DNA of 58,016 nt, counting the filler, from Bipalium vagum (Eukaryota): NCBI GenBank assembly GCA_037834085.1. It is 3 parts of 3 records of this genome, joined end to end, with 100 filler letters (N's around TTAATTAATTAA, not from the genome) between each part and the next. Parts side by side here need not be neighbours in the genome. Positions count along the whole stretch, not along the records: positions 39,207 to 58,016 come from JBBMKC010018619.1; 2 more parts are not named here. One strand, written 5' to 3'. Position 1 is the first letter of the stretch, and the number at the start of each line of letters is the position of its first letter. Of the stretch, positions 30,201 to 58,016 are shown piece by piece. A model generated the notes under the pieces. The model searched no databases. It was not told the DNA's origin and was given only the letters and a program-made list of their open reading frames with translations. Both the position numbers and the translations under genes were made by a program.

Positions 30201-31788
30201 AAATTGTATTTATTTATCTGAAATTTCGGATTTTACATTTTTAATGTTTTAATTGTTTATTAACAAAATTTAAACACTAGTGCTAAAATTTGTTTTATTT
30301 TTCACGGGCTTATTGAACACCCTCGTATTAATTTTATAACTGTTAAATTTTCATCACTCCAAACAACTATAAAGAATATTCAATTTTACATGAGGTACAA
30401 ATTGAATTATTTTTAATCTTCGTGCTATCATGATCAAGGATAATTTTTGTTTATAAGAAACTGAATAAATAGAACTTAAATCAAACTACACATCCCATAT
30501 TTATTTGTGTCATAAATTTTTCTACATTTCAAAATGTGTTGAAATTTCAATCTTTCCAAGAAAACAGAATGGTTTTCTCGTTTTTGAGAAAAAAATTTGG
30601 ATATCTAACATTTTTTAGGACGAAAATGAAAATTATTGATAAACTTCATGTATTAGGTTGTGCCATCTGAAATTTCCGATTTAATTATATATTTTCCAAA
30701 CCAAATTAACGAGCCAAAAAAGTTTTATTAACTAAAATAAAAGCCATTCGTGAAACACATTTCTGCCAATGACATTAAAGACTTTTAATTCCTGTTAAAT
30801 AGAAGTCCACCTTTCTAGAATTTATAATTTCGGAGATGGCGGAGAATTTATTTGTATTCTTCAAATTTTGTAAAATTGGAAATCTTTAAAAACTAATAAT
30901 AATTAAAACAAAATCAATTGTGAGATAATTAAATATCAAGAAATATTTAATTTTTAGTTCATAATTTCAATTTCTAATTTTAAGATTTTGTTATATGTGG
31001 TCTTGAAAATTTGTTATCATTGAATTAAAAACCATTAGAATTGATTATCAATTGATATATTTTTTGCACAGATAATGTATTATCAGAATAATAAAATAAT
31101 GTGTAATATTAAAAGTTGCTTGACATGTATTGAATTTAAATGGTGGGTAACAAGTAAATTATTTGTTAACTTAGATATAATAATTTCTGTATTGATGATA
31201 CTATGAACTATTTTTAGCATAAACGGTATTTCAATTTTAATTGCCCATAATGGTTAAAGTGTCGGAAAACTAGAGTAATAAAAGTTATAAAATTTAGTTC
31301 GGTTATTACTTTTGATGTCATATTATTAGTAAAGACTCCATTTTTAGAATGCACAGAAAATAGGAGGTCATGTGCTTCTGTTTTTCTCAGTTAATGGGTC
31401 TGGTCATTTTTGTGGAATAGCTGAGATGACATCTAGTGTCGATGAAAATGTAATTACTGGGATTTGGTGTCAAGATAAATGGAGAGGCAAATTTTCTGTT
31501 AGATGGATCTATGTAAAAGATGTTCCCAACACTCAATTACGCCACATATCTACTAAAGTCAAAACATTAAAATCTGGAGGTGAGAGCACAACGGAAATGA
31601 AGCCCATCACGAATCTAAGAGATGCAACTGAATTAAAGTCAGATAGGGCACCGGGAACATCATTTAAAGATGATACTGGATACCAAGCCCTCAGAATTAT
31701 CATAGATTGCAAAAGTAATATGTCAATTTTTGATGACTTTTTGCATTATGAAAAGCGGGAACTTGGTATAGGTAATTTTGAAAATTAA
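21209..31788 (+). CDS. YTHDF: YTH-domain m6A reader, YTHDF-type, about 660 aa over 7 exons
   Basis: Exons: 21209-21292, 21334-21592, 21809-22137, 25875-26186, 26228-26488, 28730-29032, 31348-31788. The last exon may instead splice at 31765/31771 to a terminal exon near 33617. All junctions are GT-AG and in frame. An N/Q/P/S/Y-rich low-complexity N-terminus precedes the YTH domain: [34 protein letters not shown]|..[46 protein letters not shown]. Start codon and last exon are less certain. Confidence 0.93.
22520..22870 (-). mobile_element. BEL/Pao LTR-retrotransposon pol fragment (decayed)
   Basis: Minus strand TTTGATGCCACTTGGGTCTTTTAGCTCCA reads FD-PLG-LLAP with frame slips, preceded by KKTIIS. 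This resembles the Pao TKRxxxS..FDPLGxxxP motif. Confidence 0.4.
23752..24973 (+). mobile_element. Tc3-like (Tc1/mariner, DD34E) transposon with both ends, transposase pseudogenised; in a YTHDF intron
   Basis: TA|CAGTGCGCCACATATTAATTGCCGCA ... TGTGGCAATTAAGTTGTGGCGCACTG|TA gives imperfect TIRs plus a TA duplication. Fragmented transposase (ORFs 24010-24390, 24522-24803) with [16 protein letters not shown] and LNPIENLW, broken by stops and frameshifts. Confidence 0.92.
26755..27170 (+). mobile_element. Degraded Tc1-like transposase 5' fragment
   Basis: RIIGLFQAG and [16 protein letters not shown] (HTH plus GRPR-like linker), with many stops. Confidence 0.55.
27423..28385 (-). mobile_element. 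5'-truncated mariner (DD34D) element
   Basis: ORFs 28000-28371, 27750-27953 and 27496-27753 carry [23 protein letters not shown] and [12 protein letters not shown]. One TIR-like end near 27423 (TACATGGGTTGGTCGATACGAATTGCG); no partner seen. Confidence 0.88.
29120..30325 (-). mobile_element. Mariner (DD34D) element with both TIRs and a frameshifted transposase; in the intron that splits the YTH domain
   Basis: TIRs CGAGGGTGGTTCAATAAGTCCGTGAAAAATAAAA and TTTTATTTTTCACGGGCTTATTGAACACCCTCG|TA. Motifs [27 protein letters not shown] (third D changed to N) are spread over ORFs 29766-30176, 29507-29773 and 29211-29435. Confidence 0.93.
30651..30682 (+). repeat. Solo mariner-type TIR
   Basis: TATTAGGTTGTGCCATCTGAAATTTCCGATTT resembles TATTAGGTTG-type mariner ends. 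No partner found. Confidence 0.4.
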
Positions 31789-34899: not shown

Positions 34900-35480
34900 G
34901 ACTTCATGATTCAATTTACCAAATCTATTAAGCTATCGACTTAGAACAAATCCAGACTTGAGTTGAATTTCCTGATGTGGGGATATAAGACAGGATATTG
35001 TAAACCGAACCATATACCAATTGCTGTGTTATAGAACACAGCCGTTATAAAGAAAACAATATAAAACAGTCTGGAATAGTAATACAGAAATTGTTGTTAT
35101 TCCGTGTATGATGAGAGGTAAGCGCTATTTAAATTAAATTACCTTGCCACACAAGTTAACAATTGTTGAAGAGAATAGCCTGACGTTGAAATAAAACAAT
35201 GACAAACCTCATAAAGTCAGAATTGTGATGTCAAATTGGACTCAAATGCCTTTTTCATGGCTGGCGAAATCCCTAGACTTCTACCCTATTGAATACCTGT
35301 GACATAAGGTACGAAATCGCTTATGCGATAAGTACGAGGTATTTACCGATAATATAACGAGCTTTCAGATAGAATGCGGTGTAAGTGGATTTCTATTCAA
35401 TAAAAAAATAATCCAGCATGTACTTCGTAGCATACATGAAAAACTTTGGTATTACAAAAAGAAAGATGGTGGTCATAACT
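34900..35480 (+). mobile_element. Degraded Tc1-like transposase 3' fragment
   Basis: NDKPH..WLAKSLDFYPIEYL* is a decayed DNxxxH..WPxxSPDLNPIExLW motif. Confidence 0.55.
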
Positions 35481-36249
35481 CAATAATAAGTTTTTAAGAA
35501 CGCCAAAAGGGCCATTTTAGGGCGACAAACATTGATTATTAATTGATTCTGTTAAAATTGTAAATATGTATTGAAAATATGAATTTATAATGTCAAATTA
35601 TAGTGAGCTACTCTTTTATATTTTAATATATTTTACAAGATTATGATATCGCAACGACTGTGTAAACAATAATAATAAGACTTTTGGAGGAAAAACAAAT
35701 TTAAATGAGTGGAAAGATAAGGCATTGAGAAATGAAAATCGACAAATCGAAGTCAAAATAGTGATTACTGGATGTCGATGATGTGGATAATACGATAAGC
35801 AAAACGAATGCGTTGGTGGCACAATTTTGTGGAAAACTGAGAATGTGTAAAGTTTATTTGTTGGTGTTTTCCAAGAGTGTCTAGAACTGCATTCAAAGAA
35901 TTTGAGAAGTGAGGCGTGCATAACATTATTCCAATAGTATCTTGGGAATTAGCTTTGATAATTATGAAAGGGGTACTAAAGTCTTATCATGTCAAAAAAC
36001 GATGACAAAGAGAGCAACAGGTAATTTAGAATAGAAAATTTTGATGGTTTTCGTCCTAAGAACTACTTTTGGAGATACAATCGTCAGGGGCTTAGAAACA
36101 ATTTTTGGTTCCATCTTGTATTCGATTAGCGAACGGGGTCATATGAGAATGACTAGTTTTTGTGTAAAAAGGTTCATTCTCTATATTAGCTATGAAAATT
36201 AATTCCAATAGTTTTTTCATTAAAAAAATTCGTTTATTAAAAGTAACAA

Positions 36250-36520
36250 AATATTTGTTTCAGTCAAAATATTTTCTGTTGGAAATTCAACTTTTGATCA
36301 TCTTTCGTGCAAAGAATGGATTCCGCGGCAAAATAAATCTTGATCTTTTGAAGCAATCAATTGATTCATTTTTTTACATTTTTATAGGAATTGAAGGTCT
36401 GTCTAGCAAGAGAATGAGTATGAATCGAAAAAAAGTGGAAGTCAAATGGAGCTGTCTGGTGAGTACATCGGTTGAGGTAGATCCTGCCAACCAAATATTT
36501 TCAATGTTTCTTTAACTTGT
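36250..36520 (-). mobile_element. Mariner transposase C-terminal remnant
   Basis: Minus strand reads PQPMYSPD... and IASKDQDLFCRGIHSLHER*SKV. Confidence 0.6.
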
Positions 36521-37937
36521 TTGTCAAAATCATTTTACTAAATTTTCTTTTTTTGTTGGTGGTTATTATTTTTGGAATGTTTTGATTAAATTTGATTTTA
36601 ATGTGATTAAAAGTACCTAAATATGATTAAGCCGATTTATCTTCCTAATAAGGTAATTAGCGCAAATTTGACAGAAATTATTGGGTGTTTCAAAATTTAG
36701 TATCACTATTCATACAATCATGGAGCAGGTAAAACCAGAGATGATTCCCGTTAGAGTTTCTCTACACGAGTTTACTGTCTGAAAAGATGCGAATATGAAA
36801 GGATTAATAGAGAGAACCGATATGAGCACGACTATTACCTGAAAAGGGTTGTTTTTACTGGAAAATAATAAAGCTCTCGAGATACAAACAACTTTGTTTA
36901 AGCAAAATCTGGGAACTATGAAGTCATTCATGGAAATTAAATGCATCTTTATTAATTTAAAAGGGTTGAAGACGGAGGAAAGGCAAAAGGAAGAATACCC
37001 CAGTCCTGAAAATGGTATACCGTAGTCGTTTGGATAAGAAAATCGATTTTATTAGTGCCGCTAGGATGTTATTGATATGGAATCAATGAGAAGAGGTAAT
37101 GGCAGAAGAAATTAGTCCAATGTCAGCAGTTACATTAGAGATAAGGGTAGAAAAAATGGTTGAAATGTTACTTTATACATACGCGGTTCATAATTTTTCA
37201 TCATTATTGATTCAATATAAAGAATTCTGTAGTACCACCAACATTTAAATCTCTTAATGGAGATTATTACAGAAAAGGATTGGTTGATGAGAAAAGGTTA
37301 TGTTTCGACTGTTTCAGCGTCTGCAATAAAAAGGGAGAAAACTGAGTGATAATTTGGAACGATTTAGTGATGGAACAATATTTTTTACACAAATTTATTA
37401 TAATTATAAAAACCGAAAATAGAAACCGAAGTCGGATGATCACGACAATTTAGTCAGAAATATGATCCAAGATTTTCAAGTCTTAGGATATCGAATAAGT
37501 ATAAAAATGCATCAAACTATCAAAACTATCAACCCGCCACCTCCGTATTGTCGTTTTATCACCCGATTGAAATGTATTCTCTTTGGACTGTATGTAAACC
37601 TAATACATGGTACCATAATTGCTGATCGTATAACATTTTGTTCATGAGGCTAATATTTCTTTTTATTAATTAAATCGATTTTTATCCAACCAGATGCAGA
37701 AAATTGTTTAACTCTTATGAAATTTAGTACTTTCCTTCATTTCATTAACATATGAGGATTCCTTCAGTAACTCATTTAAATCTTAGTTTATTTCCTGAAC
37801 GATTTTTGTACAAAAAGATGGAGAATCTAAAAATATTTATTATTTATTACATTTGGTAATGAGAATATACAAAAATTATTACGTTCAACAAAATTAGGAA
37901 ATTCGATTTCAATTGATTATTTTTCACATTGGGTTGA

Positions 37938-38817
37938 TTAGTGAGGGTCATTGTCAGCATTGGACTTGCTCCAATTGCCAATATACCTGCTCAGTACGTC
38001 TGGAATTATGTTTCCCGTTGCGTGATCGATCACTTTCTTAGTGGGCACTTTTGATTGCTCAATTTTCAAAAACAACGCCTTGCTTAGCAGGCCAGAATTA
38101 ACTAGTCCTTGAAGATGAGCCTTTGACTTATGATGCTTATGGAGATGTCCGTTGACACGAAACCCAGTGTTGCATACTACACATCGAAAGTTTCTTGGTT
38201 TATTGAAAGTGGTTTTCGAACTGGTTGAAGACGTAGAATCTACAGAGGAATTAGAAGAACCTAATTTTGCATTGTTTCCATGTTGATTTGGTTCTTTACT
38301 ATCTGTGAATATATGTAGGTTTTTGTGCAAGCTAATCATACCACGATCAATCACTTGAGAACAGATTTCACAAGATATTTTATCATCAAACATCGGATAT
38401 TCATGATGATGTTCATTACTTGTACAGGAGGATTCAGAAGAAAGATTTGGAAATGATTGAGGATGCGCTGGATTATAATTTATCAACGTATTTTCATGTG
38501 CATCTATTTTACGAGTATAACCAACATTTGTAGACGATGGAATACTGATATCAGAAGGAGAAATAATTGGATATAACGTTTCAAGAACTGAAACAGAACT
38601 TTGAGAAACGAAAGGAATGGTGGGTTGTCGATTGGCAGAAAGATTAAGAGGACAATCCTAAAGAAAATGTGAGAGGGATATTATCTAATACTTACATTAC
38701 CTGCATGAGATCTTTTGCATTTATATTAGGTGCATGAAGAGGGACACATTTTTCCATTTCCTTTATGCGCTTTGGATCTTTCAATTCCTTATTATCTTCA
38801 TATAAAAATTTACTTCT
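37938..38817 (-). CDS. Schnurri/HIVEP-like C2H2 zinc-finger protein, 3' exons
   Basis: Exons 38817-38701 and 38657-37938, joined by a 43-bp GT-AG intron in phase 0. Contains PLNLS (CtBP-binding-like), finger CEICSQVIDRGMISLHKNLH, and finger PRNFRCVVCNTGFRVNGHLHKHHKSKAH followed by LQGL..IEQ..ID. This resembles my recollection of the Schnurri C-terminal finger (PRPFKC..C..AFRIHGHLAKHLRSK.H). The 5' end is undetermined and lies next to a gap. Confidence 0.72.
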
Positions 38818-39106: not shown

Positions 39107-39206
39107 NNNNNNNNNNNNNNNNNNNNNNNNNNNNNNNNNNNNNNNNNNNNTTAATTAATTAANNNNNNNNNNNNNNNNNNNNNNNNNNNNNNNNNNNNNN
39201 NNNNNN

Positions 39207-39276
<70 letters not shown>
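39035..39276. repeat. (ATT)n microsatellite on both sides of an assembly gap
   Basis: Perfect ATT runs abut the N block on each side. Confidence 0.95.
39107..39206. other. Assembly gap: N44-TTAATTAATTAA-N44
   Basis: Same artificial 100-bp placeholder. Confidence 0.97.
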
Positions 39277-40355
39277 TACTACTGATAATAACTAAAATAC
39301 ATAATAGAAAAGTAAAGTCATTTTTAAAGAAATGAAATACGCTTTATTTATAAAATATTTTGAGAAAATAAAATATGAGGAATGTACAAATTACAGAGGG
39401 TTATTATAATTTGTAAATAATCCAAATCCAAATTCAAATGAAGTAGCAAATGAAATAATAATAATAATGGAACTGACGAATCCAATTTTAGCTTTATCTA
39501 AAAAAAATAATAAATCAATTAAAATTAAAATTGTTAAATTGCTAATTTTATTATTGACACTTTTGAAAAATTTACTTATGTCCTGATATGAACATTCGTA
39601 TTTTTCAATGAAAGAATTTATTTTGTGTCAATGATAATTATTCTTACTTTGATCTTAACCCTATTTTTGAAACATTTCACCAAAAAGTTCTATTTACTCC
39701 TTGTGATGCTTTATGATTTTCATCAAGTTATAAACGTTTTTCGTTCACTTACGTAGAATGTTGTTTCTTTTGTCAAGGTCATTAGGATCTAGTCACACAA
39801 TTTTGTAATATATCCTTAACTTTGAAGATCATTCTCTCTCCAGACAGACCTTACTTATACATGACTGTAAAATTTATTCCTTTAAAAAGAAATGTCGTGA
39901 TTTTTTTCAGTCTTTGTACAAAAGGTTAAGGTTCATTAACCTAATTCTATGGAAAATATCAAAAATCTTTTCTGAAACTTCCAAAAATGATTAATCTTTA
40001 TCTTCTGAATATTGAATTAAAATTAATTGTAAAATCAATTTTTGATAAATTAATTAATAATTTTTTTTTCACTTTTTTAATAATGTAATTAAACAAATAG
40101 CAAAAAAATCTGATATTTTAAAATTAGAAAATAAAATTGATGGATGAGCATTTTTTTCATTGATATTTTGTTCATAAAATTTTCATGTTTAAGAATAATT
40201 CTAGTTAAAAATATAAATAATAAATTTATAAAAAATTTCTTTTTAATTCAATTACAAAGCTATTATAAATGATTTTAATAAGAACCCCTTTAAATTAAAT
40301 AATAATTAATAGTAAGCGGAAAAATATATGCAAATGCTATTAAAAGAGAACTCAA

Positions 40356-40382
40356 ATCATTGGTCGAATGATCAGCCAATGA
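40356..40382. promoter_or_regulatory. Inverted pair of CCAAT boxes (possible promoter)
   Basis: TCATTGG-TCGAATGATCAG-CCAATGA in otherwise very AT-rich DNA. Confidence 0.25.
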
Positions 40383-40749
40383 AAATCTTCATCAAACCTT
40401 ATTATCTTGAAAGGTTTTCTGACAAAAATTTTTATTATTTTAAAAATCCAATTGTAATATAAAACACCAAAGGACGATTTTTTATTTAATGTTTCCTAAG
40501 ATTCTCCGTAAATAAAATCATGAAAATCAGTGAATTAAATCTATGTAAAGGATTTTCGAATAGACCTAAGAATTTTAACATTTATTCATAATGAATAAAT
40601 TTCCAAAATTATAACAACAAAAATTTGTATAAAACTATTTCACCTAAATGCCTTAGGTTACTTTCAGAAACTTGGGAAGGAAGTTTAATAAATTCTTGTG
40701 TATATCAAAATTTTGATTGTATATTGGATATATAATTTCTTTTTTCTGG

Positions 40750-41760
40750 AATATTATGCACTCATTTCAAGATACTATTAAAATCTTACATAACATTGTT
40801 AATTGAAGTCAACCGTTACATTGAATTCTTTCAAGCATTTATCAGCAATTTTTGTTGAAGAGATCGAACAGTCTTCATCAATCCATTCTTTATTAACATT
40901 TTGCTGTTCGGCCAATATTTTTTTTGTCTTAAAGCGCCTCTTATTTTTTTCACAACTTGCTTTAGTATTTTATTTCATACAAGTATAGAATGTCAAAATA
41001 AGGTTTTACAAATTCAAAATAATTGCAACAACATACAAATCAGGAGTTCTGGAGTGGACGAAGAATTTGAAGCCTTGTTCAGCATCACATTGGTTTTTCA
41101 AGCTTTTCTGGAACATAAAGTTGGTGAGATGTTTTTGTACAAGGTTGGCCAGAAGGTTGAATAGGAATTTTTTTGTAACCGTGGTTATAATATTTTTGTT
41201 TCAATTTTGAGACATACGAGCAAGTGCTATCCTGTAGAATTATGTTCGCTTTCTGAAGATCAATGTTGATTACTTACACTGAAGTTTTTTTATTTCTTCG
41301 ATTTTCCAAACGTACTTCTGTGCTGTAATTGTCTTGCCAGATTTCAGTAAACTATAATATAAGACCAGTTTGTAAAACATAGACTGTAAGCATTATCTTT
41401 TTATGTAATTTCTGTTTTAAAAATGGTTTCGGTGCCTATTCTTGGTCCAACCACTGAGCTGATCGTCTCAGTTGTGGAAAAGAATCCATTTCTCATCACA
41501 CGCACAATGTAATTACGAATATAATTGTTTTTCTTTGCAACCATTTTTCCTATTTTGTTTTAGATGTCTCTCTTGATTTTATGCTTCGAATAATTTTTCA
41601 TTTTCAACGGTTGACGATCTTTTACTATGCACTTCATCTTCAAGATTTTGAAAAAAGTGAGCCAACGTTGACCATATACTTTCGTAAACGATATTTTGGT
41701 AAAATGTTTTTTCACATTGTAAACTGTGTCTGATGGCATAAAACTTCTTTTAAGTAAATC
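40750..41760 (-). mobile_element. Decayed Tc1/mariner-superfamily (possibly maT-like) transposase
   Basis: Raised-GC tract with only fragmentary EKNF..HN-like and SxPxL-like residues. Family assignment is weak. Confidence 0.3.
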
Positions 41761-42265
41761 TTCAGGATTTTGTTACTTTTGATTATTGATTAATTACTTT
41801 AAATTACATAAAAATTAAAAATATACTCAAAATTTTTTCTAATTAATTAATTATATTCGATGTTTAAATTGATGTATAACATGACATTAAATATTGAAGC
41901 ATTTCCGAAAATATTACACGTTAAAAGTCAACTATGCAGAAACAGCGATTTTTGATCAGCCTAATAAAATAAATAAATTTCACAAAATAAATAATTGGAT
42001 ATGATTTAATATTTTTATTAAAAATTTTCTAATAGTTTAAGTGAAATATTAATTTTTGGTAGTCTAATTTTGAATTTCTTATTTTACAAATTTTTCTGTT
42101 GCTCTTTTAACATTGACATTTAATCTAAAGATATCATTGAAGGGTATGTGGGTACTAATTGAGTAGTTAATCGGGTACTGAAAGTAGATTATATATTTTG
42201 CTAGCGAAATGCTTCTAATTAGTAACCCATGAACGCTAATATTTAAGTTACCTAAGGGTTCAAAT

Positions 42266-45200
42266 TCAGCTTGAAAACTTTTCACTCAAACGTATCAGAT
42301 TAATTGACTTAATAAAACTTAACATATAAGAATCATACTTAGTTGTTTCTTGAGCATTCATGAAGGAGACTCTTGTCCTAAGCCACTCTAAGTCCTGAAA
42401 TACCCACAACTCACCGTACGGCAAACAGAGCAGATGCTTCATATTCACAATTCGAATAGCTGAACTACGGTTTTGCGAGAGCATACTTTTCAACATATCC
42501 ATGCAACAAAAATGATTTCCTTTGAAAAAATCATAAAAGACTTCAACAAAAGGAATTTCCACTCCAGTTGCCGGATTCATGATCAACTTCATGGTTATCA
42601 TACAATTACTTTTCGTTTCTATTTTCTTGATTCTCCGATCTCCCTTTTTCCTGAAAAACGGCTCCTGACACATCTTCCTACCTTCAATGGACATTGACAC
42701 GTACAGTATTCTTAAACAGCGCTGTTGTCGCCATTTACAACAAGGAGTGCGGAAAATGAATTCGCTGAATCTCCTGATATCGTGAGAAAGCTTTAAAAGG
42801 GTTCCGATTTCTTCTTTACTTCGACTGTAGAGGCGCACATTGAATATAGATTTCGCATGATCAAGTCTCTCTTCAAATTCAAAAAGTTTAAACAAGTTCT
42901 TTATTTGATGATTAGAAGTCTTCATGATATCCATCAGCATCTTGAGATGATAATCGAAGAGCAATCCAACCGAACTGTTAAGACTGGCACAAATCAGATA
43001 AATGTCAAAGGCCAAAACACAAAGGCTGAAATTTAAGAACCTCCGATAGCTTGCATCCTTAGGGTCAACAAGGTCAAAGAATTTCGGTAAATTAACGCCG
43101 ATTTTATTAATAGCCGACAGAAATTTGACCTCAACCCCTTCTCCCTTAGTCAATTTGTTAAACTCCTGATCAACATCCGAATCGTTCCGGGACAGCAGTT
43201 TCATAATGACAAAAACGTTGGTTTTGACGCTGGTATTAATCAAATTTCTCTGTTCAGGGTTCAACTGTTGATTGAACGATTCAATGGCATTGCACTGTAT
43301 TGACTTGTGTTTCTGTGGGAAAAAATTTTGGAAATCTGCCTGATTATTCTTGATTTTTTCATTCCATATATCGCAAGACAGGATGTGTTTCTCATTGAAC
43401 AGTTGTAAAATATCGGGACTTAATTCGCCGAATAAACTAAAAAGAGTTTTTCGAAATTCCGGCGACATGAGCTCCTTCTTTTCCTTGAAATCGGCGAATA
43501 GCAAGTCCTCATCGAAAACGAATTCTTCGTACGTTTCTTCCACCAGTTCAGGAGTGGAGATCTCCGTTAAGAAAACGGACGTTGTGGATTCCGTTAGTTC
43601 GTACGAATCGATTTTATTCTCAATTTCTTCCGACACAATGCGACGACTCTCCAAGTACTGAAGACGGACTGTTTCTTCCTGTTGCTGTTTGAAGAGCGCC
43701 TGGCGGTTTATAAATGAAAGTCTTCTCTGTTCCTTAGTGATGAATACCTGATTTTTCAAATCGAAATTGTAGAATTTCTTTAGCAGATCATATATCGTAT
43801 AATAAGGCAGGTTTAATTTGGCAATTTCTCTATCTTCGGCGTCATAGTCCGTGTCGCAGCGTAAAATAACCCTTAACGTATGATTCAAGCATTCAAAGGG
43901 TGTAGAAGTGGATTTGGAAATCCGGTGATATAAAATATCAAAGAGATCATAGATGTCTGCTTGGACATTAGCACTGGTTTTCTTGGAATGCTTTCTAAGC
44001 TCCAGGAAGGTCAACTCTTTCATGTTTGGAACTGAAGAGGAGACATTGAAATTCAAAATGTTCTCAACATCAGAAATTTGTATTGTTTTATTTGTTTTAA
44101 CTTCTATTTCTTCATCCCGAGACTCTATTGTAAATTTTTCTTTCAATAGTTCCATTTCGTCGAATGAATACCTCGGCTTTGGAGGAATTGTCAAATTGGA
44201 CTTGTAGATCTTCCATTCTTTGCACTGATTAAACCAGCACTGGTGATCGGTAATGAACGAAAAGGTCATTTTTTTATATTCTTTCATGTCGGAATCTGAA
44301 AGAGAGTTCTTCCAAAAGTAAACGTCCTCGTTTTCATTGAAAAACTTCTCCAACTCTTCAATCAGAATGTTTTCCTGGCTGCTTAAAAGCTTGAAGATCT
44401 GTTTACTGATTGCGTCATGACTCAGAAACGGACTTATGAGGTCTCCAGTCCGACAGTTTATTTCCACTGCTCGCAGTTCTCTTAACGGTAAATCACTGAG
44501 AATGGAAAAATACATCGACTCGTCCCGTGTTATGGTCCGCAAAGACTTGAGAAAATACTTACTCGGATTGATTATCTTAACGATGTACCCAATACAGTCA
44601 AGGAACCCCAGAAAGTTCCCTTTATACCAATCAAAGAGCACCTCGAGCAAAATATAATCATTGCCAATTCGACAATCGCCGGCCGTAAAATCGAGCTGAA
44701 TTTTACAAAAGCATTCACATTCGATTTTTTCGAACAGTTTCTGATTCAAGTACATGAACGGTTCAGAATATCGTTTGATTTTGGGGATGAGAAAGGAATT
44801 ATAGACGACACACTTTTTGAAGGTTCTTCCGAAACTCTTCAGAAACGACAGAGAATTGCTCGACTTGATCCAGTATATCGTTCGGCTTGTTAGAAAATTG
44901 CAGATTCTTTCCAGAGCATCGATACAGAACTGTTTTTCAATCAGATCAGAGGCATTACGAAACTGATCGAAAATGTTGAACATCACATCCCAATACTTCG
45001 AAGACAGGAACCGGTTCTTGAAGCTGTGAAGTGTGATGAACTTTTCCACGAACTCCAAATGTCGAGTGATGCACTGGTTGACCAGTTTCGTTGAATTGAT
45101 ACTGGCGAACTCGAAATACTGGATCAGATAGTCTATTGCTATGAAGAATGTTGCGTTAAATTGTTGATTTTCTTCGATCTTCGTTGAAACAAAGTCCAAA

Positions 45201-45283
45201 GCTTCAACGTACATGTGATCCGAAAGAATCCCTCCATTAACGTACCACAATTCTTTTCTGAACTTGTTTGTGGATTTTTGCAT
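42266..45283 (-). CDS. Intronless 1005-aa hypothetical protein, family not recognised
   Basis: 3018-bp uninterrupted ATG-to-stop ORF, far beyond chance length in DNA this AT-rich. Visibly more GC-rich than its flanks. No transposase, RT, integrase or kinase motif recognised. Confidence 0.85.
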   Translation of the reverse strand: MQKSTNKFRKELWYVNGGILSDHMYVEALDFVSTKIEENQQFNATFFIAIDYLIQYFEFASINSTKLVNQCITRHLEFVEKFITLHSFKNRFLSSKYWDVMFNIFDQFRNASDLIEKQFCIDALERICNFLTSRTIYWIKSSNSLSFLKSFGRTFKKCVVYNSFLIPKIKRYSEPFMYLNQKLFEKIECECFCKIQLDFTAGDCRIGNDYILLEVLFDWYKGNFLGFLDCIGYIVKIINPSKYFLKSLRTITRDESMYFSILSDLPLRELRAVEINCRTGDLISPFLSHDAISKQIFKLLSSQENILIEELEKFFNENEDVYFWKNSLSDSDMKEYKKMTFSFITDHQCWFNQCKEWKIYKSNLTIPPKPRYSFDEMELLKEKFTIESRDEEIEVKTNKTIQISDVENILNFNVSSSVPNMKELTFLELRKHSKKTSANVQADIYDLFDILYHRISKSTSTPFECLNHTLRVILRCDTDYDAEDREIAKLNLPYYTIYDLLKKFYNFDLKNQVFITKEQRRLSFINRQALFKQQQEETVRLQYLESRRIVSEEIENKIDSYELTESTTSVFLTEISTPELVEETYEEFVFDEDLLFADFKEKKELMSPEFRKTLFSLFGELSPDILQLFNEKHILSCDIWNEKIKNNQADFQNFFPQKHKSIQCNAIESFNQQLNPEQRNLINTSVKTNVFVIMKLLSRNDSDVDQEFNKLTKGEGVEVKFLSAINKIGVNLPKFFDLVDPKDASYRRFLNFSLCVLAFDIYLICASLNSSVGLLFDYHLKMLMDIMKTSNHQIKNLFKLFEFEERLDHAKSIFNVRLYSRSKEEIGTLLKLSHDIRRFSEFIFRTPCCKWRQQRCLRILYVSMSIEGRKMCQEPFFRKKGDRRIKKIETKSNCMITMKLIMNPATGVEIPFVEVFYDFFKGNHFCCMDMLKSMLSQNRSSAIRIVNMKHLLCLPYGELWVFQDLEWLRTRVSFMNAQETTKYDSYMLSFIKSINLIRLSEKFSS

Positions 45284-47048
45284 TTCAAAGGAATTATTGA
45301 TTATTGGAAATTTTCTTCGACTGAATTTTGATTATTTATATTAATTATTATGAATTATCACGTGGTGGATATTTCTTTTAATAATTCTTTGATCTTTCAC
45401 AAGGTCAATGGTTTTCCCTGAGATGATAAACTCAATTTTTATTTCATTAATTATCGTGTTTAATTAGTAAATATTTTTTCCGTAAATTTTTACAAAATAT
45501 GAGAAATAGTAAATTAAATTTAGATAAATTATTCTTGAGTGGTTGAAGTTGATAAATTGTCAAATTAATAATATTAAAAATGATTTTCAGCTTAAAAGGC
45601 TTACCGCAAATTTTCAAAATTATTTTTTTATTATTTATGATATTATTTTAGAGTTGTGTAATGAATGTCAGATATAGTACCATTATATTTTTCGAGTTTT
45701 ATTATAAAACATGCTTAATTTTTATTGGTTAATCGTCTATTATGAATTGAGTTGCGCGGTACCAAGCAGCTCATATTATGCGAACTGAACTGTATAAATA
45801 TTCTTCTTTTCTTTTGTTTAGGAGGAATAACTACGTCACCTGATATTTTTGGGAATTAAATTTTTTCCTGCTTTTTCATATTTGACATTTAACATTTTAC
45901 TTATTTTTACTTAAAGAACTTATTATTTACTTAATTGTTACGTGTATTCAATGAAATTTTATTTTTATATATTTATTATTATTCATATTACTTTTACTAT
46001 TACTATTATTATTACTTTTATTTTAATTATTATTATTATTACTATTATATTTTTTTATTAATTATTATTATGTAAATTTTTTAAAATTTAATTTTACCAT
46101 ATTTTTTTATATGACCATAGGGTCACTAAAAATCTTCCCAAATGTTTCCTAACAAATATTATCGTGGGCCTAATATGGATCAAATTATGAAATTTTCCTT
46201 TGGTCTCATTACATATAGCCAGTCGTTTAAAATCAGATATTTCAATCTGCTTCTACTTAAACTAACAATTTCATTATGTGTTCCCTTATCCATTTAATTA
46301 TTATTTATTTATTAGATTTCCCTTAAGAATTTAACAGATTGAAGTCAATAATTGCAACTGTGAAAATTATTTTAATTACAAACATTAACCGAAATTTTAC
46401 ATTTATATAATTTACATAATATGTGTCCAATGTGAAACGACAATAAATAGTTAAAAATCAATATAATCGAAATATTAAAATAATAAAAAACAGAAGTCTG
46501 TTAAAAGTCAAAGTATATTTTATAAATGGGAAATATTTTTAAAAGGAATAAAATTAACAAAAATTGATATTTTATGTTTCAGAAATTAATAATTATTAAT
46601 AAATATTTTTTTGATTTATAATAAATTTGTGTCTTTTATATTAGGAAGAAAAAGTTTAAAATATACTTGCGTTTAATACATCTTTTGACAGATATTTGAA
46701 AAAATACATAGTTCAAATAAAATTAATTTTTTAAAATTAATTTTTTATATTTTATCTGTTAATATATTTTGGAAACGGATTATAATACTTAAAATGTATA
46801 TGATAGAAAGTAAAGAATATAAGAATAACAAATTAATATGTCCATTAATCCTACAGGGTGCGCAAGAAGTCCTTAGACTACTTTTTATTAAAAATTTTTT
46901 TTTGTTTCTTGATATTTTTGAATTATTGATTTCTTGTTTAGATAAGTTGAATTTTATACCCGTTATTTGGTCGGACATTATTACTATGTTTGCAGAAATC
47001 GAAGAGACATTGAATCGAGTAATGGACTTTTTGTACTGGCAATAATTA

Positions 47049-48588
47049 CAGTGCTCCAACTAATTATTGCCGCACCTTGAAAATATTTAAATCTTGACTA
47101 ATTTAAATTGAAATAAACTTTTTTGATTATTGTATTATGTATGAAATATTTGTAAGATTTTAAAATAACTTTTGGCTGACTAATCAACTATTTACTTAAC
47201 ATAAAACTGATTTCTTATAATATATCAGATAATTAATTCCAACTAATTATTGCCGCACTAATTTAAAAGTGAAATTATTTAAATCTAATTATATAAATTA
47301 AACGTTTGAAGATTAAATATTAAATGTAAGTACTTCTGTCTGTCGAATACTAAGATTTTTAAAAAAGTTTATTTAGTAAGATGAGTAAAATTGCAAGATT
47401 AATCGACACCGAGACACTATGCCTACCACGACGCCGGAAAATCGAACAGATGGATTGGCACTAAGTTATGGAAGAATAAAAGTAGTATAAGATACTTTTT
47501 GAAGAATAAAAATAAAGAAAAGACACGGGGTTTTAAGGCGATGATTACCGCAGCAACGAAGTGTTCCATTATTAGCAATGCCAGCAAACAAAGAATATCC
47601 TGTGCGAAAATAAAAACACTATTCAACCTAAATTGGTCCGTAGAGAGTATTAGAAAGATTTTGAATAAATCTGGGACGATCCGGTATATGAACATGTTGG
47701 TAATACCCCCTTTGAAGCCACAACATGAAACCAATCGTATCTGCTGGGCTAAAGAGAAAATGTCCTGGGTAACAGAATGGGAAAAGGTCATCTGGAGTGA
47801 CGAGAAGTTTAATTTGGATGGACCTGACGGTTACGCATATTATTGGCACGATTTGCGGAAGGAGATATCTTTTACGAATAAACACACTGGAGGAGGTTCC
47901 TTGTTGATTTGGGGTTGTTTCAAGGAAATCGACTCTCGCGATTATTACCGACAGACAAAATCAATTTGATTATCAAATACTTTTAAGAGAACATATACTT
48001 CCCTTAATGAATGACTTTGGCGGAGACAAACCAATTTTTGAGCAGGATAATTGTCGATACCATGTTTCAGGTTCAACTTCCCAATGGCTTCAAGACAAAA
48101 ATATCAATTTTTTGTCTTGGCCGCCCTATTCACCAGACCTGAATCCCATAGGAAATCTTTGGATACTAACACGTCGGGTATATGCTAATGGGAAACAATA
48201 TGAATCGATTTCAGAGCTCAAACGAGAGGTAATTTGCTGTTGGGAAGAAATCGGTAACAGCTTCCTGTGAGCACTGGTAAACTTTATACCAAGTAGAATT
48301 TATGAAGTGATATATTCCCATGGAAGTTCAACTAAATATTAACAATCGAAAAATAATTCAAAATGTATTTTTTGATATGATATGTGCGGCAATAAAGTAT
48401 TGGTATTTTTTTTAGTTAATTTTTACTTTTTTAAAAATTTTTTTTCATTATATTTTTGTTTGTAAATATATATATTAATAGGATGGATATTTTGTTACAT
48501 TACTTATATATACATATTAATAACTTTGATAGCTTCTATATAAAAAATATGCATTTTCATAGTGCGACAATAATTGGTTGGGGCACCG
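47049..48588 (+). mobile_element. Tc3-like (DD34E) transposon with outer and inner terminal binding sites, transposase pseudogenised
   Basis: TA|CAGTGCTCCAACTAATTATTGCCGCAC ... GTGCGACAATAATTGGTTGGGGCACCG|TA. ORFs 47499-47969 and 48007-48270 carry WSDEKFNLDGPDG..YWHDLRKE, QDN and WPPYSPDLNPI(G)NLW. There are 34 residues between the second D and the E position, which is mutated to G. Confidence 0.93.
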
Positions 48589-48628
48589 TATTATAAATAC
48601 TGAACTTTTCATGTTGATAGTAAAGAAA

Positions 48629-49108
48629 TGGATATTAAATTAAAAAACAGCATGGTGATGAATGTTCCATCCGATCCAATTTTGTTTTTAAGAGAAAACA
48701 ATCTGTTATTACTATCAGGTAATTTTTAATACTTATGCTACCTTATTAATGTTTTTAGATAAATGCGATGGTTGTAGCAAAATATTCAAAGAATGCAAAT
48801 TAAAAGGATTGTGTTTCATGGCGCCGAGAGCCTATTCCAACTGTCTAAAGATGCTCACACCCAAAGAATTGAATGGATTTGAGGGAAACTGAAGACTAAG
48901 ATCGTGTCAATGAAGGGCGTCTTAGGAATCATATCTTTATAACTGGATAGGGCTTTCAAAATATTCAATCGAGGAATTGCCAATCAATTTTTATTTTAAT
49001 AAATTTGTAAAAAATCAAAAAATATTTGTTTGTTTTTCAAGTATCTTTTTTAGCCGATTGATTACATCAAGTATCTTTTTGACCGAGTCTGTCAAAAAAA
49101 CATGATCC
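48629..49108 (+). mobile_element. Merlin (IS1016-like) transposase remnant, internally deleted, with a short intron
   Basis: ILFLRENNLL..S|DKCDGC..(frameshift)..SWR resembles the Merlin N-terminal zinc ribbon. It is followed directly by HTQRIEWI*GKLKTKI..MKGV, similar to the Merlin HTQxIExxWxxxK motif. The GTAATT..TTTAG intron is at 48719-48758. Confidence 0.6.
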
Positions 49109-49218
49109 GAAACTTTTCTTACCATTGTTAGATTATCAAAAATTATTTTTATTATTAGTAATATTATTATGATTTTATTTGTAAATCAAAATTTCTTCTA
49201 AAATAGTGTTAAAATTAC

Positions 49219-52200
49219 CATCATTGTCATGGACAATTTGAAAATTCTTCACAGATGCCTGTGTAACTCTGCCGTGAAAGTTTAACACATAAGATTGTGT
49301 ATCTGAAAAATGAAAATCGAATATTAAAAATTATAATACTGACGTTTCAGAAAAAGGACAAATTACAAAAAAACACAGATTGAAATTCCCTAATTACATA
49401 AAGAATTTTTATTACTATGTTTACACAGCATGTAATACTAGTCTCGATTTTTACAGCTGATGCAGGTTGCGCTCATCAATTTTTTGTTTTTCATCTGCTA
49501 TCACATTACCCAGTGATGGAAAGAAAAATGTCACATTTAATATTCTGTCCTATGTGAGACAAACCTTATTTCTCTCTGTTCGTTTAGTAACAATTTTGTC
49601 ATGATATTAGATTCCAATGACAATTTCTGTTTCTTTCATTTATTACAATACTACCAGACAAAAATGACTTTCAAAAAAGACGATCTATGAATACACGTCT
49701 GTTTCTATTCGATAATTTTTACTAATATAAATTTACACCTGAAAATTTTTTTAATAAATCAATTTGCAAATAACTTATGTAAATCTATTTTTAAAAAATT
49801 GACGAAACTTAATTTAAACGACTTAGCAAAATATAAAAATATTTTTATTTTTACTTTTAAAATCGAATTTTTATCAAATATTAAAAGTAAGCTTATAAAT
49901 CAAACAATTAATAATAATAATAATAATAATTAGAGAAAATAATCAAAAATGGCACCATTTAAGTAACCATATATATTAAATTATGTTAGCAGAAACCACT
50001 TCAAAAAACGTCGCATTAATTAATGATAGAATGCTAAATTTTTCATCACAATTATCAGTATTGATGAACCTTAAACCTCAATAATGGTATTTTAAATTTT
50101 GAAGGTAATTTAAGTAAATAATACTAAACTTTTACGAAAATAGTGTCAGTTTTTAAAGAATGAAAATAAAAACCTCATAACTCAGGTAATAATGAACTTT
50201 GTTAATCAAAATAAAATCTATGAGATACAATGTTTTACTGTTAACGATTAACAAGTTTCGTTAACAAGATTTTGAATAAAACCATTTCTTTTGGACGTAA
50301 TGTTGTTTTCGACATGTTAGCGTGCGTAAATCTTGCCAAATAATTTTACCTTATCAATTGACCAATGCCGGAATTAAAAGTTTCAGTTTTTCATTCATTT
50401 CTTGAATATGTTGACACTGTTTCTTTTTCGTAATAGTTTCACCCGGATTTAAAAAGTTATGACGGATCAGACTTAACTTTTTGATGCAAAATTGATTTTT
50501 TAAAGTCCTTAGGAGCTTCATCATGGTCCAACCATTGTGCCAACCATCGAATCTATTTCTCCTGACATTTCACGATTCGATTGTGAAACAGGAAAAGAAA
50601 TGAAGAAGGTTTTTCACTGAACTTGTATGTGGTAAGGACTAAAAAGTATTTAGATTCTAACAGAAAAATTGAAGACACTTAAATAAAATTTTACATGCGA
50701 TTAGTTTAGATATTCTAATTCGTGTTTGCACTAAAGATTTTACCGGTGGTAAAAGTGCATCAATGTAAACAGCGCTTATGTCGAGAAATAATATCTATAA
50801 ATATAAACGTATTGTTAAAAAAAATTTCTGATTTCACTTTATTATTTCTGAGTAAAACCAAGTACTTTTTAGCCTTCACACGTGTGACATGCACTTATTC
50901 ATATTTTTTAGTTTTCGATTTGATTTAAATGACGAAATACTGTAGTATGGTTGATATTGAGTTAATCTGATATTTCTCTAGTAGTTGTTGAAGGATGGTA
51001 CATCTTTCAGGTGAAAACATTCGTACAAATGTTGCACCAAACAATAATTAATTTTTCTTTGGCTAAATGCCTTGTACTTAATTTTAATCTTTTCCGTGTT
51101 CCTTTAGGTCAACTAGGAAAATTATAAACAGTAATTACTTTTTGATATCATTTTGCATTAGTGTAATAGAAATGTGATAAATTTTAATGAATTTAAAAAT
51201 ATAAATTATCAAAATAAAATTTCTTTTTGATTTTTAGTCTAATATTTTTAATAGATTCTATAAAATATTAAATACTAAGTTATTTAGCAATCTTCGAGCA
51301 AGTGAAGTAACATTTGCTTCACTTTAGGAACTCTTAAAAATCAATAATGGTTAAATATATATACGATCAATAAGTTTGCCTGAAGAAATTAATTCAAAAG
51401 TTGTTAAATGTAAAATATTACATTAATTTATTCTATTTAATAACGATTTGAAAAATACATTCATTTTGTCTAACTTAATCATGTTACTGGATTTTAGTAA
51501 AATAAAAAACCAACGTTGACTAGAAACATGTATTTAGATCAAAGAAAATAAGGATGTCTTTGTTAAAAGAATCAAATCGTTTATCATTATGGAAATTAAG
51601 AAAAAATTCAGAATCTTTTAATAAATTCACAGAATCTAGACATTTTTCCACGTGCATTTTGAAAAAAATTAATTTTGGTTACTTTATTAAAACCTTTAGG
51701 AATGATATTCATATTTTACAAAGTTTCCTCTTTTTTTCTTCCTACATATTTCGTTTTTTAATTTAATTTTACAAAAATATTACTTATTTTATTGAATATT
51801 TTACTATTTAATACTATTAAATTTGATTCTCAAATTTATTAAAAACTAATAAAATATAAAAACTGCCAAAAAAATAATTCACTTATAAATATAAAAAAAT
51901 TATTTAATAAATTTGATTAACAAACTATACAATTTTAACATTCAATCAAGAATCTTTCAATTTATTAATTAAATTTAAGAAAAATGTAACAAAATTAATT
52001 TAATTAAATCAAGTTTTCGATATTTTATAAAACATTGATATTTCTAAATAAATATTACACGTTTATATTTTTATTATTAAGATTCTCAATAAAGAGAAAA
52101 TTATAAAAAAATCTCGAAAACAGAAAACAACTATAGATTTTTTGAAATTTGTGCAATTTTCTAGTCCTATGAAATATATAACACAATTTCATTGTTACTG

Positions 52201-55200
52201 GTAAAAATTAATCAATCTCCGAATATTTTATAATGGTTTGTACACCGGTCTTTTAAAACCAATATTTATATAACCTAAAAAATTCATTTCTACATAAGAA
52301 CCCTAGAAAGGAATAAGATCAGAAGCAGAAATTTGTTGCATTCTTGAGAATATCTGCAGCTAAATTTTATACCGTTGAAAAGATTGTAAAAAATACATGT
52401 ACATAAAAAGTAGAATGATTAATTGTAAAAAAAATGTAAGATCCAGAGATTCTGTAGCACATGATAATTTCAATTAGCTGAATTAATTGAAGTTTATATC
52501 GGATTTTTGACTTTCTTTTTTTTCTGGGTATTTTAGTTCTTTTTGTTAAAAATCGACTCTCGATATTTTATTTTAAGAAAACAAAATAAAGTTAAGTAAT
52601 AATTTGAATTATACATTTTTGCCAATAATGCGAGCTATACTCCTCAATTATTAATCGATATATTCAAACTAATCAGTATTAATTATATTATAATCTATTT
52701 AATAAATAGACTGTGAAAATTACCTTAATTTTTCAATGTCTTTTTCAATGTCTTTCTAGGGATTCAAAATTTTTTTATTAATATCACTATTAACAATTTT
52801 CAAATAAAATAATATTAGTAAGTAAAATGAAAAGAATTCAAACATAAATCTTGAGATAATTAGAACTTTTATTTAACCAAAAATTATTCTAGTTTTTATC
52901 AAAATATTAAAATCTATGCTTAAAATTAAAATAAGAGATTTCTGAAATCTTATAAAATCATTTTGAAATATATTCATTTAAAACAATAAATCAATTATTC
53001 CTTAGGAATTAACAAATTTTTTGTTGCATCTTTAATTTATTTACTAATTTGACAATCTAGAAACATTAAGAGCAAATAAATTTTCACTTTGATAAAAAAT
53101 TATAAATTTTTTTTCATGTAAATATAGTTAATTTTTTAATGAAAATTATTGATTAATTGAAAAAGGATATAATTCAATTATTGATTCTTTCAAAATGAAT
53201 TTTACGAAATTATTTTCGTCTGTGATTTATTTTCGATTATTTCATTTTTATTTATCTTTATTTTTTATTTCAAGTCGCGAGAATAAATGTTTTATAAACA
53301 ATTTCTGCTTTAACAATTTGTTCTCTTTCGTACATGTGTAACAGATGGTAAGTCTGTCATTTGTCTGATTAAGGTGAATAACAAGGTTGTTTAGATTAAA
53401 GGCTAAAATATCAATTTATTTTAACAAATAATTTTAAAATAAAAAATAGACAAAAGATAAAATTATCTTCAAAAAATTTTAACACTGTCAATCACTCGAA
53501 ATGGTAATTGATATTTTTATAATTATTTCTGATTTAAGAGTCTTAATGTTTTTATTGGTAATATCATATCAAAACAAAATCTAAGTCAAAATTATGGAGC
53601 TTTATAAATGGGGTTTTGACAATGAAAACTCTGAATAAATCTATTAATAAAATGGATTTAATCAGAAAATTTTAATCTCATTTTGATAAAAAATCAAACA
53701 AGTTTTTCAGTTTAAATATAAATTTAACAAAATATTCCTTATCCTAAATGATAATTTTTCTTCATTTCTAAACCTTTCGTTTTCTTATAACCTTATTATA
53801 AATTTATATTATTAAATATTCTAAGGAAACCGTAACAAATGAAATTCCAATTATGGAAGTTCTGAAATAAACAGTGATTTTATCATCAAAATTTCTCAAC
53901 CATGTTCTCTTAATCATTGCCCAATTACCAAGGTATCTGGTGATCTAGTGTCTTTTTAATGCTAACACTTATTTAAAAATTCTGGTCTCATTTTTCTATC
54001 TTTATCTTCATTCTTGTCTATTTCTGACAGTAGAAAATGAAATAGATAAAATATACCAAACTGGATATTATATCTATTTCCTCGAATTTTTGGACCAATG
54101 TAGATAAAGAAACATGGTTGATTTACATAAATATCATTAAACGTAAGCAGTGCAAAGGTTTACATTGAATTGTATTAATAAAAATAAAATTCCTATATAC
54201 ATCCAAATTTTTCAGAAATTTCTGCCTAAAAGAATAAGCTATTGAATTACTAAAATGTCGATTACTTAAACATTTAAGCATTTTATGAATAAATTTTATT
54301 TTATAACTCCTGATAAAATCTAATCAAACAGGCTATTATTTTAATTTTTATCATGTTTATCTTTGATGTAAAATATCAATGATTTTTTTAAAGTCAAACT
54401 GTCAATCAAAACAATTAAATTTATATTATAATACTATATAAATAATTTATATTTAAAATAAATATCTCCAAACAGTCACTAGGATTCATTGATATTAATT
54501 ATAGCACAAAAATATAATTAAAAACAATATTATAAATCAATTCAAAAATTTCATTTAAAAGATGAAATTGGATATTTCAATTCAGATTTTTCATGCAGTA
54601 AAGTCTTTTCATCACTAACTGATGTCCAAAAAATCTCTATTATAGAAATCAAAAATTTCATTCAATGAAAAGTTAATGATAGCGAATTATAATTCGCCAT
54701 TCTTCCAAATTAAAAATTAAAATTAATTAAAAAATAAAATAGACAATTTTTGAATTTATTTGTAATTTTCTGATTACAGATAAATATGATTCAGATAAGA
54801 CGATAAATAATTTAAACGAGAAGAATTATAATATTGTTGAATAAATTCCTTGGTCTGTTTTAAAAAAAAAACATGCCACCTTTAAAGGTTTAAATTTATT
54901 TTTTGACACAATAAAATGAAAGCTGTTTCTTATTTTTGTTCTCGAAACAGTTGAGATTATTTGATTAATCATTTGGAAAGAAGTACTTGTTAAATAATTT
55001 TTTGTACTTAATTAATGGTGATATAATGTATAAAAAATAAAATAAAATTCCAGGAAATCTAGAAATATTAAGTTATTCTCAATTTAAATAACGAACTAAT
55101 TGTAATATAAATGAGTGATATTAAGAAATTATTGTATTTAAAACTTAAAAACTTTCATCTGATTATTTTTATATTAAGAAAGAAGAATATAATTTTCAAG

Positions 55201-57193
55201 ATTGTAAATTCTTCATTTTTATAAATAATTATTATTTTTAGGATAGTGAATTTTTTCAAGAATATATTTTTCATATTTTAATTTATGGCCTTAGTGAGGA
55301 CAATAAAATGAATGTGAAAAATAAATTTAGAAAAAACTATAACAGAGCCAAATAGCTGATATCAAAAGTTATAATAACATTTTTAGGCATAGAAGAACTG
55401 TAGTTAGTTTAATAAATACGTTCTTTGAACTGCAGTTGAAAGAAAATCCAACCTTTGTTATTAGCAAGTTTCCTAAGTTTGGATTTCATCGACATTTACA
55501 CCTAATAAAACTCTGTAAATTAGCTCTGTTGTATCATCGCCAAAAATTTTAATTTGATGATACGCTAATGTGTATTATTTCATTTTGTCAAGAAAATAAC
55601 ATGAAAATTTTTGGATCGAATAATGATTGATGACTATATATAGACGATCTATAAAAAAATAAATACCACAGAAAACCAGTAAGGAAAAGGAACTTTTAAA
55701 TCAAGAAAAAAATATTCTCTTATATAGGATTTTTTTACTTGCAAGGAGGATATCAAATGATAATTTGTGAACTGTTATAATAAAAACAACATTAATCATT
55801 ATTAATAATATCACAAATCAGTACTTTTAAAAGTATATCTTTGTTTTAAAAAAATTCTAATTATACACCGAAAATTAGTAAAAATAAATGAGATTCAATG
55901 GAAGATAAAACTGTATCTGTATCTATTTAATTATCATTTTATTCTGAATTCTTTGACAATTCTCAGGTTAAGAAATACTAATACTTTAGAGGTCAAAATA
56001 ACAGTGGAAGACTTTTTCATCAATGACAACTTAATTCTTTGAAAACTGACAGAAATCAAAATGGAAGACAATTATGGATAATATAAAGAATATTTTCCAT
56101 TAAAACCTGTTTTCCAATTTCCTAAATTAAAAAAATATTCAAAGCTGAATTATTAACGGTTAGAGAATGACATTAGAATTGAATGAGAATTCACTTTACT
56201 TAGACTGGATAAGATTTAGATATAATGTTATAAATAAGTATTTTTTGAAAATAAGTATTTAATTGAATATTTCAAAATTTTTTACAAAAAAATCCATTAA
56301 CACATGACGATACTTATGATTTCCCATATCAAAAACTCAAAACGCTATTTCTTAGACAACTTAGAATAGCATTTAATTTTTTAAGAACGCCGATATATTA
56401 TAATTCCCTTGGTTATTTATAACCATCATTCAACTTTCCGATAAACGAATTATCTTTTCTTCAAAATCATTTAATAGTGCAAAGCTTCTTTTTACTACTG
56501 ACTACTGGAAAAAGGAAATGTCTCTTGAGTATTTCACATTTTCTTCAATTGGAATCAAAACCTCTACCAAGAAAATTATTTCAATAACTAAGATAAGTCT
56601 GCAGATACAATTCTAAGAAAAACGTTTGTTATTTTTTACAATTTAATTTCTTAATTTTCTTATTAAACTGTGATAGATTGAGAAATCATTTCCACAAAAA
56701 TTATAAATGTAAATATTATTAAAAATATTGTTAGCAAAAAATCAAAACAAGTTCTATAGAAGAAAAGCCAAATTTAAATGATTATGAAAACCCATTTAAG
56801 TTTGCAAATTGGAAATATCGATAATTAGGTAAACAATAAATCCATTATTACCTAATAATTTATTATAAGATTGAAATGAATTTTCTAAATTAAAATCAAT
56901 ATTCTATTTCTCTAAAACTTATCGCTTTATCACAGGTCGCAGAGGGAACATGCGATTATTTATAATCTATCATTGAGAACTAATAGGAAATCATTTAAAA
57001 TAATAACTCTTAATCAGTGTTTTCATATAAAATTTTCATAATATTTATTTATAAAGACATTTAAGTATTGTTGAACGAAATGAGCTGAATAACTGAAAAT
57101 CGTACCATCATTCCAAACTGGAGTTTTATTATGTAGTTCCAAAAGGTTTTGCATTTGCTTTTTCTTCCAACACTCGATTAGCCCATCTTCGTC
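49219..57193 (-). CDS. TUB: Tubby/TULP family protein, two internal exons of the C-terminal tubby domain
   Basis: Exon 57193-57106 encodes [29 protein letters not shown]. It joins through a phase-1 GT-AG intron to exon 49302-49219 encoding [28 protein letters not shown], the tubby signature. Neither exon is in the ORF track. Upstream exons are presumably right of the window; the final exon was not found. Confidence 0.92.
50250..50620 (-). mobile_element. Mariner transposase remnant in a Tubby intron
   Basis: Minus strand reads [40 protein letters not shown]. Confidence 0.65.
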
Positions 57194-57844: not shown

Positions 57845-57920
57845 CAGTCAAACCCGCTTAATATCACATTGCTTTTTGAACACAATTCCAATGATATAAA
57901 CCGCTGTTGATATTAGACGG
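57845..57920 (+). mobile_element. Terminus of a pogo/Tigger-like element or MITE
   Basis: TA|CAGTCAAACCCGCTTAATATCA is followed by inverted sub-terminal copies TGATATAAACCG and TGATATTAGACGG. No partner end in the window. Confidence 0.5.
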
Positions 57921-58016
57921 AGATCTTTTTTTTAATTATGTAACACCTTAATAAATACATTCCATAACAAATTCAATTTATTTAAATAAGCGCAAAACTA
58001 ACAAGCATTTTTATAA

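Follow-up and report, generated by a model that had tools for sequence, protein, structure and literature searches.

A duplicated module with a probable GxxG-less KH-like fold in an uninterrupted 1005-residue reading frame of Bipalium vagum

The analysis concerns a 58,016-nucleotide stretch of Bipalium vagum DNA (assembly GCA_037834085.1; three parts joined end to end, hereafter the window), whose last part, from JBBMKC010018619.1, carries a long open reading frame (ORF) encoding a protein of 1005 residues, P0001. The gene is real and intact and, judging from sequence, its product belongs to a real family of three known proteins (P0001, P0002 and P0003) that is apparently undescribed. We read it, with a probability of about one half, as a working single-exon host gene coding for a scaffold built on KH-like domains that lack the GxxG loop, or clasp.

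The frame runs from ATG to TGA, with an in-frame stop 16 codons ahead of the ATG, and stands apart among the six ATG ORFs of at least 120 aa in the window, the runner-up having 151 aa. At the observed composition the probability of 1005 open codons by chance is ca. 1e-31, and a chance origin is excluded. The sequence-only reading that drew attention to the locus had described an intact, intronless ORF with a GC content above its flanks; the frame is confirmed, "intronless" being a description of its lack of interruption, and GC is indeed 0.38 vs 0.16-0.29 in 200-nt bins of the immediate flanks, the rise being restricted to the ORF. Total GC is close to that of host exons (0.36), and the excess sits at third positions. 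All motifs quoted in that reading are present, namely CECFC (aa 189-193), PCCKW (847-851), RKKGDRRIKK (878-887) and HFCC (924-927). Of its acidic, coiled-coil-like centre the acidic part holds (net charge -11 for aa 521-600) and the coiled coil is unconfirmed, the full-length single-sequence model being unusable (predicted local distance difference test, pLDDT, 35.6). As it had also noted, there is no obvious membrane segment: the 19-residue hydropathy peaks at a borderline 1.92 (aa 750-768), and this stretch is probably not membrane-spanning because the aligned one in P0002 is more polar. Rfam gave no match.

A phmmer search of 1.84 billion representatives with P0001 returned two matches, both unnamed metagenome proteins with ca. 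30% identity: P0002 (568 aa, JGI, E 2.3e-14) and P0003 (181 aa, ENA, E 4.1e-12), each a singleton cluster, on unplaced metagenome contigs of 1949 bp and 902 bp, respectively. No significant match to P0001 was obtained in Pfam, NCBIfam, PHROGs (best E 0.17) or PDB sequences (0 matches), and a profile run against PDB sequences gave TPR-type chance matches alone (best E 0.0059). Word-indexed protein searches, with an upper size bound of 1759 aa, yielded no further relative for P0001 (proteins of 552-1759 aa), P0002 only for its residues 215-568 (312-994 aa), and P0003 only for a four-row alignment (99-517 aa). Searches of prokaryote genomes and phage records yielded no relative, nor did four locus scans of viral contigs, which reach close relatives only, or a metagenome contig scan, which likewise missed the contig of P0002 itself. 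Since the searched collections contain few animal genomes, the count of three does not give the range of the family. Paper searches on KH domains in flatworms or planarians, and on KH domains in single-exon lineage-specific orphan genes, turned up no account of such a family. The label "orphan" given to P0001 therefore has to be amended in view of its two distant relatives, while the Pfam, PDB, NCBIfam and phmmer results support the claim that a real protein-coding gene, constrained or young, is present for which no full-length relative is well characterised; of the identities proposed for it, the best fit is membership of a small gene family.

P0002 aligns with P0001 twice, at aa 758-970 and at aa 159-231, and since it matches both ends P0001 contains an internal duplication of a module of ca. 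270 aa. The two copies (aa 1-290 and ~746-1005) lie on either side of a partly acidic middle, and when they are compared directly 2 of 1000 shuffles reach the real score. Each consists of a predicted helical bundle and an alpha/beta domain of ca. 78 aa. A third module in the middle was considered and rejected, as aa 291-745 match nothing. Invariant across the three alpha/beta copies (two in P0001, one in P0002) are Y-x-S, EPF, K-x-E-x4-C-x-I, EV-x-x-D and GN. CECFC, HFCC and RKKGDRRIKK lie inside the alpha/beta domains and PCCKW just ahead of the C-terminal one; the earlier reading had seen the Cys clusters and the basic patch but neither the duplication nor the KH-like domain, and these explain the patch and two of the three clusters.

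The alpha/beta domain quite probably has a KH fold, which in its type I form sets three helices against one face of a three-stranded antiparallel sheet. Profile tests put it in the register of type I KH domains; with the C-terminal copy and with P0002 alike, genuine KH domains rank well ahead of the controls, among them RRM and ACT. Two results qualify this assignment, namely the low absolute KH profile scores and a tie between KH and ferredoxin-like folds in structure search. For the module 1 domain (N-terminal copy) alone the KH signal was not seen (2 of the top 20), and no KH family reached the Pfam KH_1 cut-off in P0001, P0002 or the isolated copies, positive-control KH domains scoring 56 and 33 bits. 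P0001 is thus not a canonical KH protein, having neither a Pfam assignment nor a GxxG, and probably folds like one. In one alternative the duplicated unit would combine a four-helix bundle with a ferredoxin-like regulatory or ligand-binding domain (ACT, EF1beta-C or PII-type) instead of KH. The order of elements in the module model, strand-helix-strand-strand-helix-strand, agrees with it, and most VIA matches to model residues 116-216 are ferredoxin-like, as are many from Foldseek, but the profile tests favour KH over the two ferredoxin-like families compared (RRM 0/118, hhalign 0.3% vs 31.9%; ACT 1/42), and the 15 residues that separate strand 1 from the helix suit an unmodelled first KH helix; we consider the ferredoxin-like alternative quite unlikely. 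The VIA match to IMP2 KH34 (6rol) extends into the module 2 tail, where model pLDDT is below 50. Generic helix bundles dominated the wide structure search, which for this reason barely tested the alpha/beta part, and in the Atlas the whole of P0001 gave helical-repeat matches at 0.80-0.83 with low recognition. Two further candidates were rejected: a second KH after the first (tandem di-KH), as 50 of 60 shuffles of the post-core segment score equally high, and a nuclease fold suggested by a likeness, to which structure searches gave no support.

Type I KH domains are recognised by a GxxG loop that links helix 1 to helix 2 (PMC12127562, PMC11261784). At the aligned position it is replaced in all three copies, by KKGD (C-terminal copy of P0001), DTSD (P0002) and YLNQ (N-terminal copy). 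Continued RNA binding through a non-canonical basic surface, which would make P0001 a lineage-specific RNA regulator, could be argued from descent from an RNA-binding fold, from the net charge of +9 in aa 851-940 and from the basic patch where the clasp would lie; against it, basic character is missing from P0002 and from the N-terminal copy, and we regard this possibility as improbable. Because the charge of the domain is not conserved, we infer a role in protein contacts. PARP9, PARP14 and DTX3L make protein contacts through KH-like domains devoid of GxxG (PMC11080071), and the KHNYN/N4BP1 di-KH with its helical bundle shows no detectable RNA binding (PMC11997328). The cysteines do not form a conserved zinc finger: there is no conserved Cys/His ligand set, two single Cys columns being invariant in the three copies, and no zinc-finger family match, while those of HFCC are not retained (HQGA and FLGF at the aligned positions). 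A first guess from Cys spacing, a WRKY/FAR1-like finger, was rejected since the ligands are not conserved. Complex prediction for modules 1 and 2, with alignments not used, gave no answer (score 0.00).

By analogy with the GxxG-less domains in the literature, loss of GxxG would entail loss of canonical RNA binding, and the KH-like domains would instead offer a surface for contacts with proteins, an RNA-protein complex being the most plausible setting. The gene may have arisen from a one-module gene resembling that of P0002 through duplication, the acidic middle now spacing the two modules so that two partners could be bridged. P0001 would then act as a two-ended protein-binding scaffold and not as a classical RNA binder.

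Concerning the origin of the gene, synonymous GC is 438/969 in P0001 and GC at fourfold degenerate sites (GC4) 161/304 (0.53), vs 326/1106 and 137/448 (0.31) in 12 pooled host exons, with a correlation in synonymous codon use of only 0.29. Taken together with a frame of more than 3 kb without intron among short host exons, surroundings rich in transposable elements, the location of P0002 and P0003 on short unplaced metagenome contigs and the occurrence of KH domains in giant-virus bins, this composition is what might be expected of a gene recently captured from a eukaryotic virus or a large mobile element not yet sampled and inserted alone, for example as a KH-like decoy disturbing host RNA regulation. 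Several observations oppose such a capture. The three kinase exons of the window have a similar synonymous GC (86/212; p 0.22 vs P0001), hence composition allows foreign origin and does not show it. Moreover, no relative appeared in viral contigs, phage records or PHROGs, and viral structures (BFVD) gave template modelling (TM) scores of at most 0.30, in collections made up mostly of prokaryotic viruses with few animal viruses; there is no second long ORF and no enclosing repeat; and P0002, with its acidic and poly-Lys tracts, would resemble a nuclear eukaryotic protein. The endogenous viral gene proposed earlier thus found no viral match, and we retain it as a minor, unlikely possibility. A compound version appears more doubtful still, in which proteins of bundle plus clasp-less KH form an undescribed family that an animal virus or mobile element yet to be sampled carries to act as decoys for the KH regulators of its host, and that was domesticated here as a single-exon host gene with an internal duplication.

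As stated in the sequence-only reading, no terminal inverted repeat or long terminal repeat was seen, and the flanks (39301-42266 vs 45284-52000) share no 13-mer with at least 3 G/C, direct or inverted, a comparison that Helitron-type or eroded ends would escape. Its suggestion of transposon cargo finds no local support, since the mariner and Tc1 relics stop short of the ORF. The downstream element had been considered a hAT relic, which was rejected as it is a mariner; its end at ~41965 is terminal-repeat-like. Of the hallmarks of a retrogene, neither a poly(A) remnant or A-tract after the stop nor a second copy or parent within the window was seen.

A contaminant or misjoin in the scaffold would explain the atypical codon use, and could be connected with the presence of the stretch in a single sequencing run, possibly that of the source sample, and with the last Tubby exon, expected on the minus strand, that motif search did not find. 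But positions 39207-58016 are free of N gaps, GC drops to AT-rich host-like values on either side of the ORF and no prokaryotic relative was found, so that this explanation is highly improbable. Among the sequencing runs listed as containing the stretch there is no RNA run. The coordinates of P0001, its parts and its surroundings are collected in Table 1.

Table 1. Features of the P0001 locus and of the remainder of the window.
Feature	Position	Strand	Basis or remark
Single open frame, P0001, 1005 aa	42266..45283	-	ATG-to-TGA ORF calling
Module 1, predicted helical part, aa 13-152	44828..45247	-	30% identity to P0003 over 142 aa; helical in low-confidence model
Module 1, putative diverged KH-like domain, aa 159-235, with CECFC and clasp position YLNQ	44579..44809	-	36% to P0002 domain, pairwise E 4e-11
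Middle, aa 291-745, with acidic stretch aa 521-600 (43484-43723)	43049..44413	-	no match to Pfam, phmmer relatives or modules
Module 2, predicted four-helix bundle, aa 746-850, PCCKW at its end	42734..43048	-	
Module 2, putative type I KH-like domain, aa 857-934	42482..42715	-	structure searches and profile tests
KH GxxG clasp position, here KKGD, within basic patch	42638..42649	-	alignment register
Module 2 tail, aa 935-1005	42269..42481	-	also conserved in P0002; profile tests do not support a second KH here
Candidate polyadenylation signal AATAAA	42014..42019	-	~250 nt past P0001 stop; sole match in 41501-42268; region AT-rich, hence weak
Decayed mariner element	40700..41965 (low end approximate)	-	matches Pfam Transposase_1 in each of two frames (E 4.6e-5 and 0.0024); downstream of gene, not enclosing ORF
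Decayed Tc1-like element	47049..48588	+	own inverted ends, TA both sides; upstream, not enclosing ORF
Two Tubby-family exons	49219-49302 and ~57108-57190	-	Pfam Tub E 1.4e-10; ~7.8 kb apart
Protein kinase gene	~880-7700	-	exons GC3s (synonymous third-position GC) 0.35-0.44 vs 0.23-0.28 in YTH and zinc-finger exons
YTH-domain gene	21334-31788	+	introns carry decayed elements: mariner at 27.5-28.4 kb and 29.2-30.2 kb, Tc1-like at 24.0-24.8 kb
C2H2 finger exon, ends KHHKSKAH	37938-38657	-	Pfam matches below cut-off

The window is AT-rich animal-type DNA (GC 0.27) with spliced genes and decayed Tc1/mariner elements. Because the P0001 ORF lies on the same strand below the Tubby exon at 49219-49302, downstream of which motif search found no last exon, it may be nested in the last Tubby intron; the last exon may have been lost in the gap at 39107-39206 or be missing from the assembly. 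The idea that the Tubby exon is spliced to the ORF was rejected: the donor needs 2 bases before a full codon, the two nearest AG sites supply 1 and have weak pyrimidine tracts, and an acceptor at 45417 meets an in-frame stop before the P0001 ATG. The gaps at 20176-20275 and 39107-39206 each consist of 44 N, 12 bases and 44 N, the one spacer read having stops in all frames, and as they are artificial scaffold joins gene order across them is not assured. The kinase, which from its motifs we assume to be of DYRK type, shows a short insertion after the helix containing LLRML, and the last exon of the YTH gene has an insertion within the YTH domain. The finger in the C2H2 exon resembles those of schnurri/HIVEP type. 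Regions 35400-37700 and 48600-49000 show raised GC and broken frames without Pfam match, and are possibly old element relics or further exons.

A seeming orphan is thereby turned into a defined module with three known proteins and no counterpart in Pfam, PHROGs, NCBIfam or PDB sequences. P0001 is at present one uncharacterised gene whose function is predicted only. If the fold is right, it would represent another loss of the KH RNA clasp, in an architecture (bundle ahead of KH, entire module doubled) unlike those of PARP/DTX3L or KHNYN, and a case for how an RNA-binding fold turns into a protein-contact surface; if viral or mobile in origin, the gene would mark an unsampled element.

Compared with its own relatives, P0001 shares ca. 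30% identity over the module with P0002, in which a long low-complexity region, acidic and basic, precedes a single module, and ca. 30% with P0003 in the helical part only. With respect to type I KH domains (Pfam KH_1, PF00013; e.g. IMP2 KH34, 6rol), the family has no GxxG in any copy and no Pfam match, and P0001 differs further by the unmodelled first helix, the conserved bundle in front and a conserved tail of ca. 70 aa behind. Type I KH domains with intact GxxG were observed in giant-virus bins (L003:353-571 and L006:265-483), where host contamination of the bins is possible, and the Atlas has a cluster of KH proteins from Nucleocytoviricota; a 2025 review describes the KH domain as not detectable in viruses (PMC12127562). 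STAR/SF1 proteins, like P0001, have a helical region ahead of KH, but P0001 has no GPRG-type clasp and no Pfam STAR match; its K-x-x-E-x4-C-x-I spacing may resemble that of this group. The KHL domains of PARP9, PARP14 and DTX3L, GxxG-less type I KH folds engaged in protein contacts (PMC11080071), provide the working model for P0001, which has no PARP, macro, RING or RRM family match and no sequence link to them that we could find. Finally, the extended di-KH of KHNYN/N4BP1 joins KH to an added helical bundle as in P0001, and its KH1 likewise is devoid of GxxG (PMC11997328); there, however, two KH modules are followed by a C-terminal bundle and then a nuclease, whereas in P0001 the bundle precedes one KH-like domain and no nuclease family is matched.
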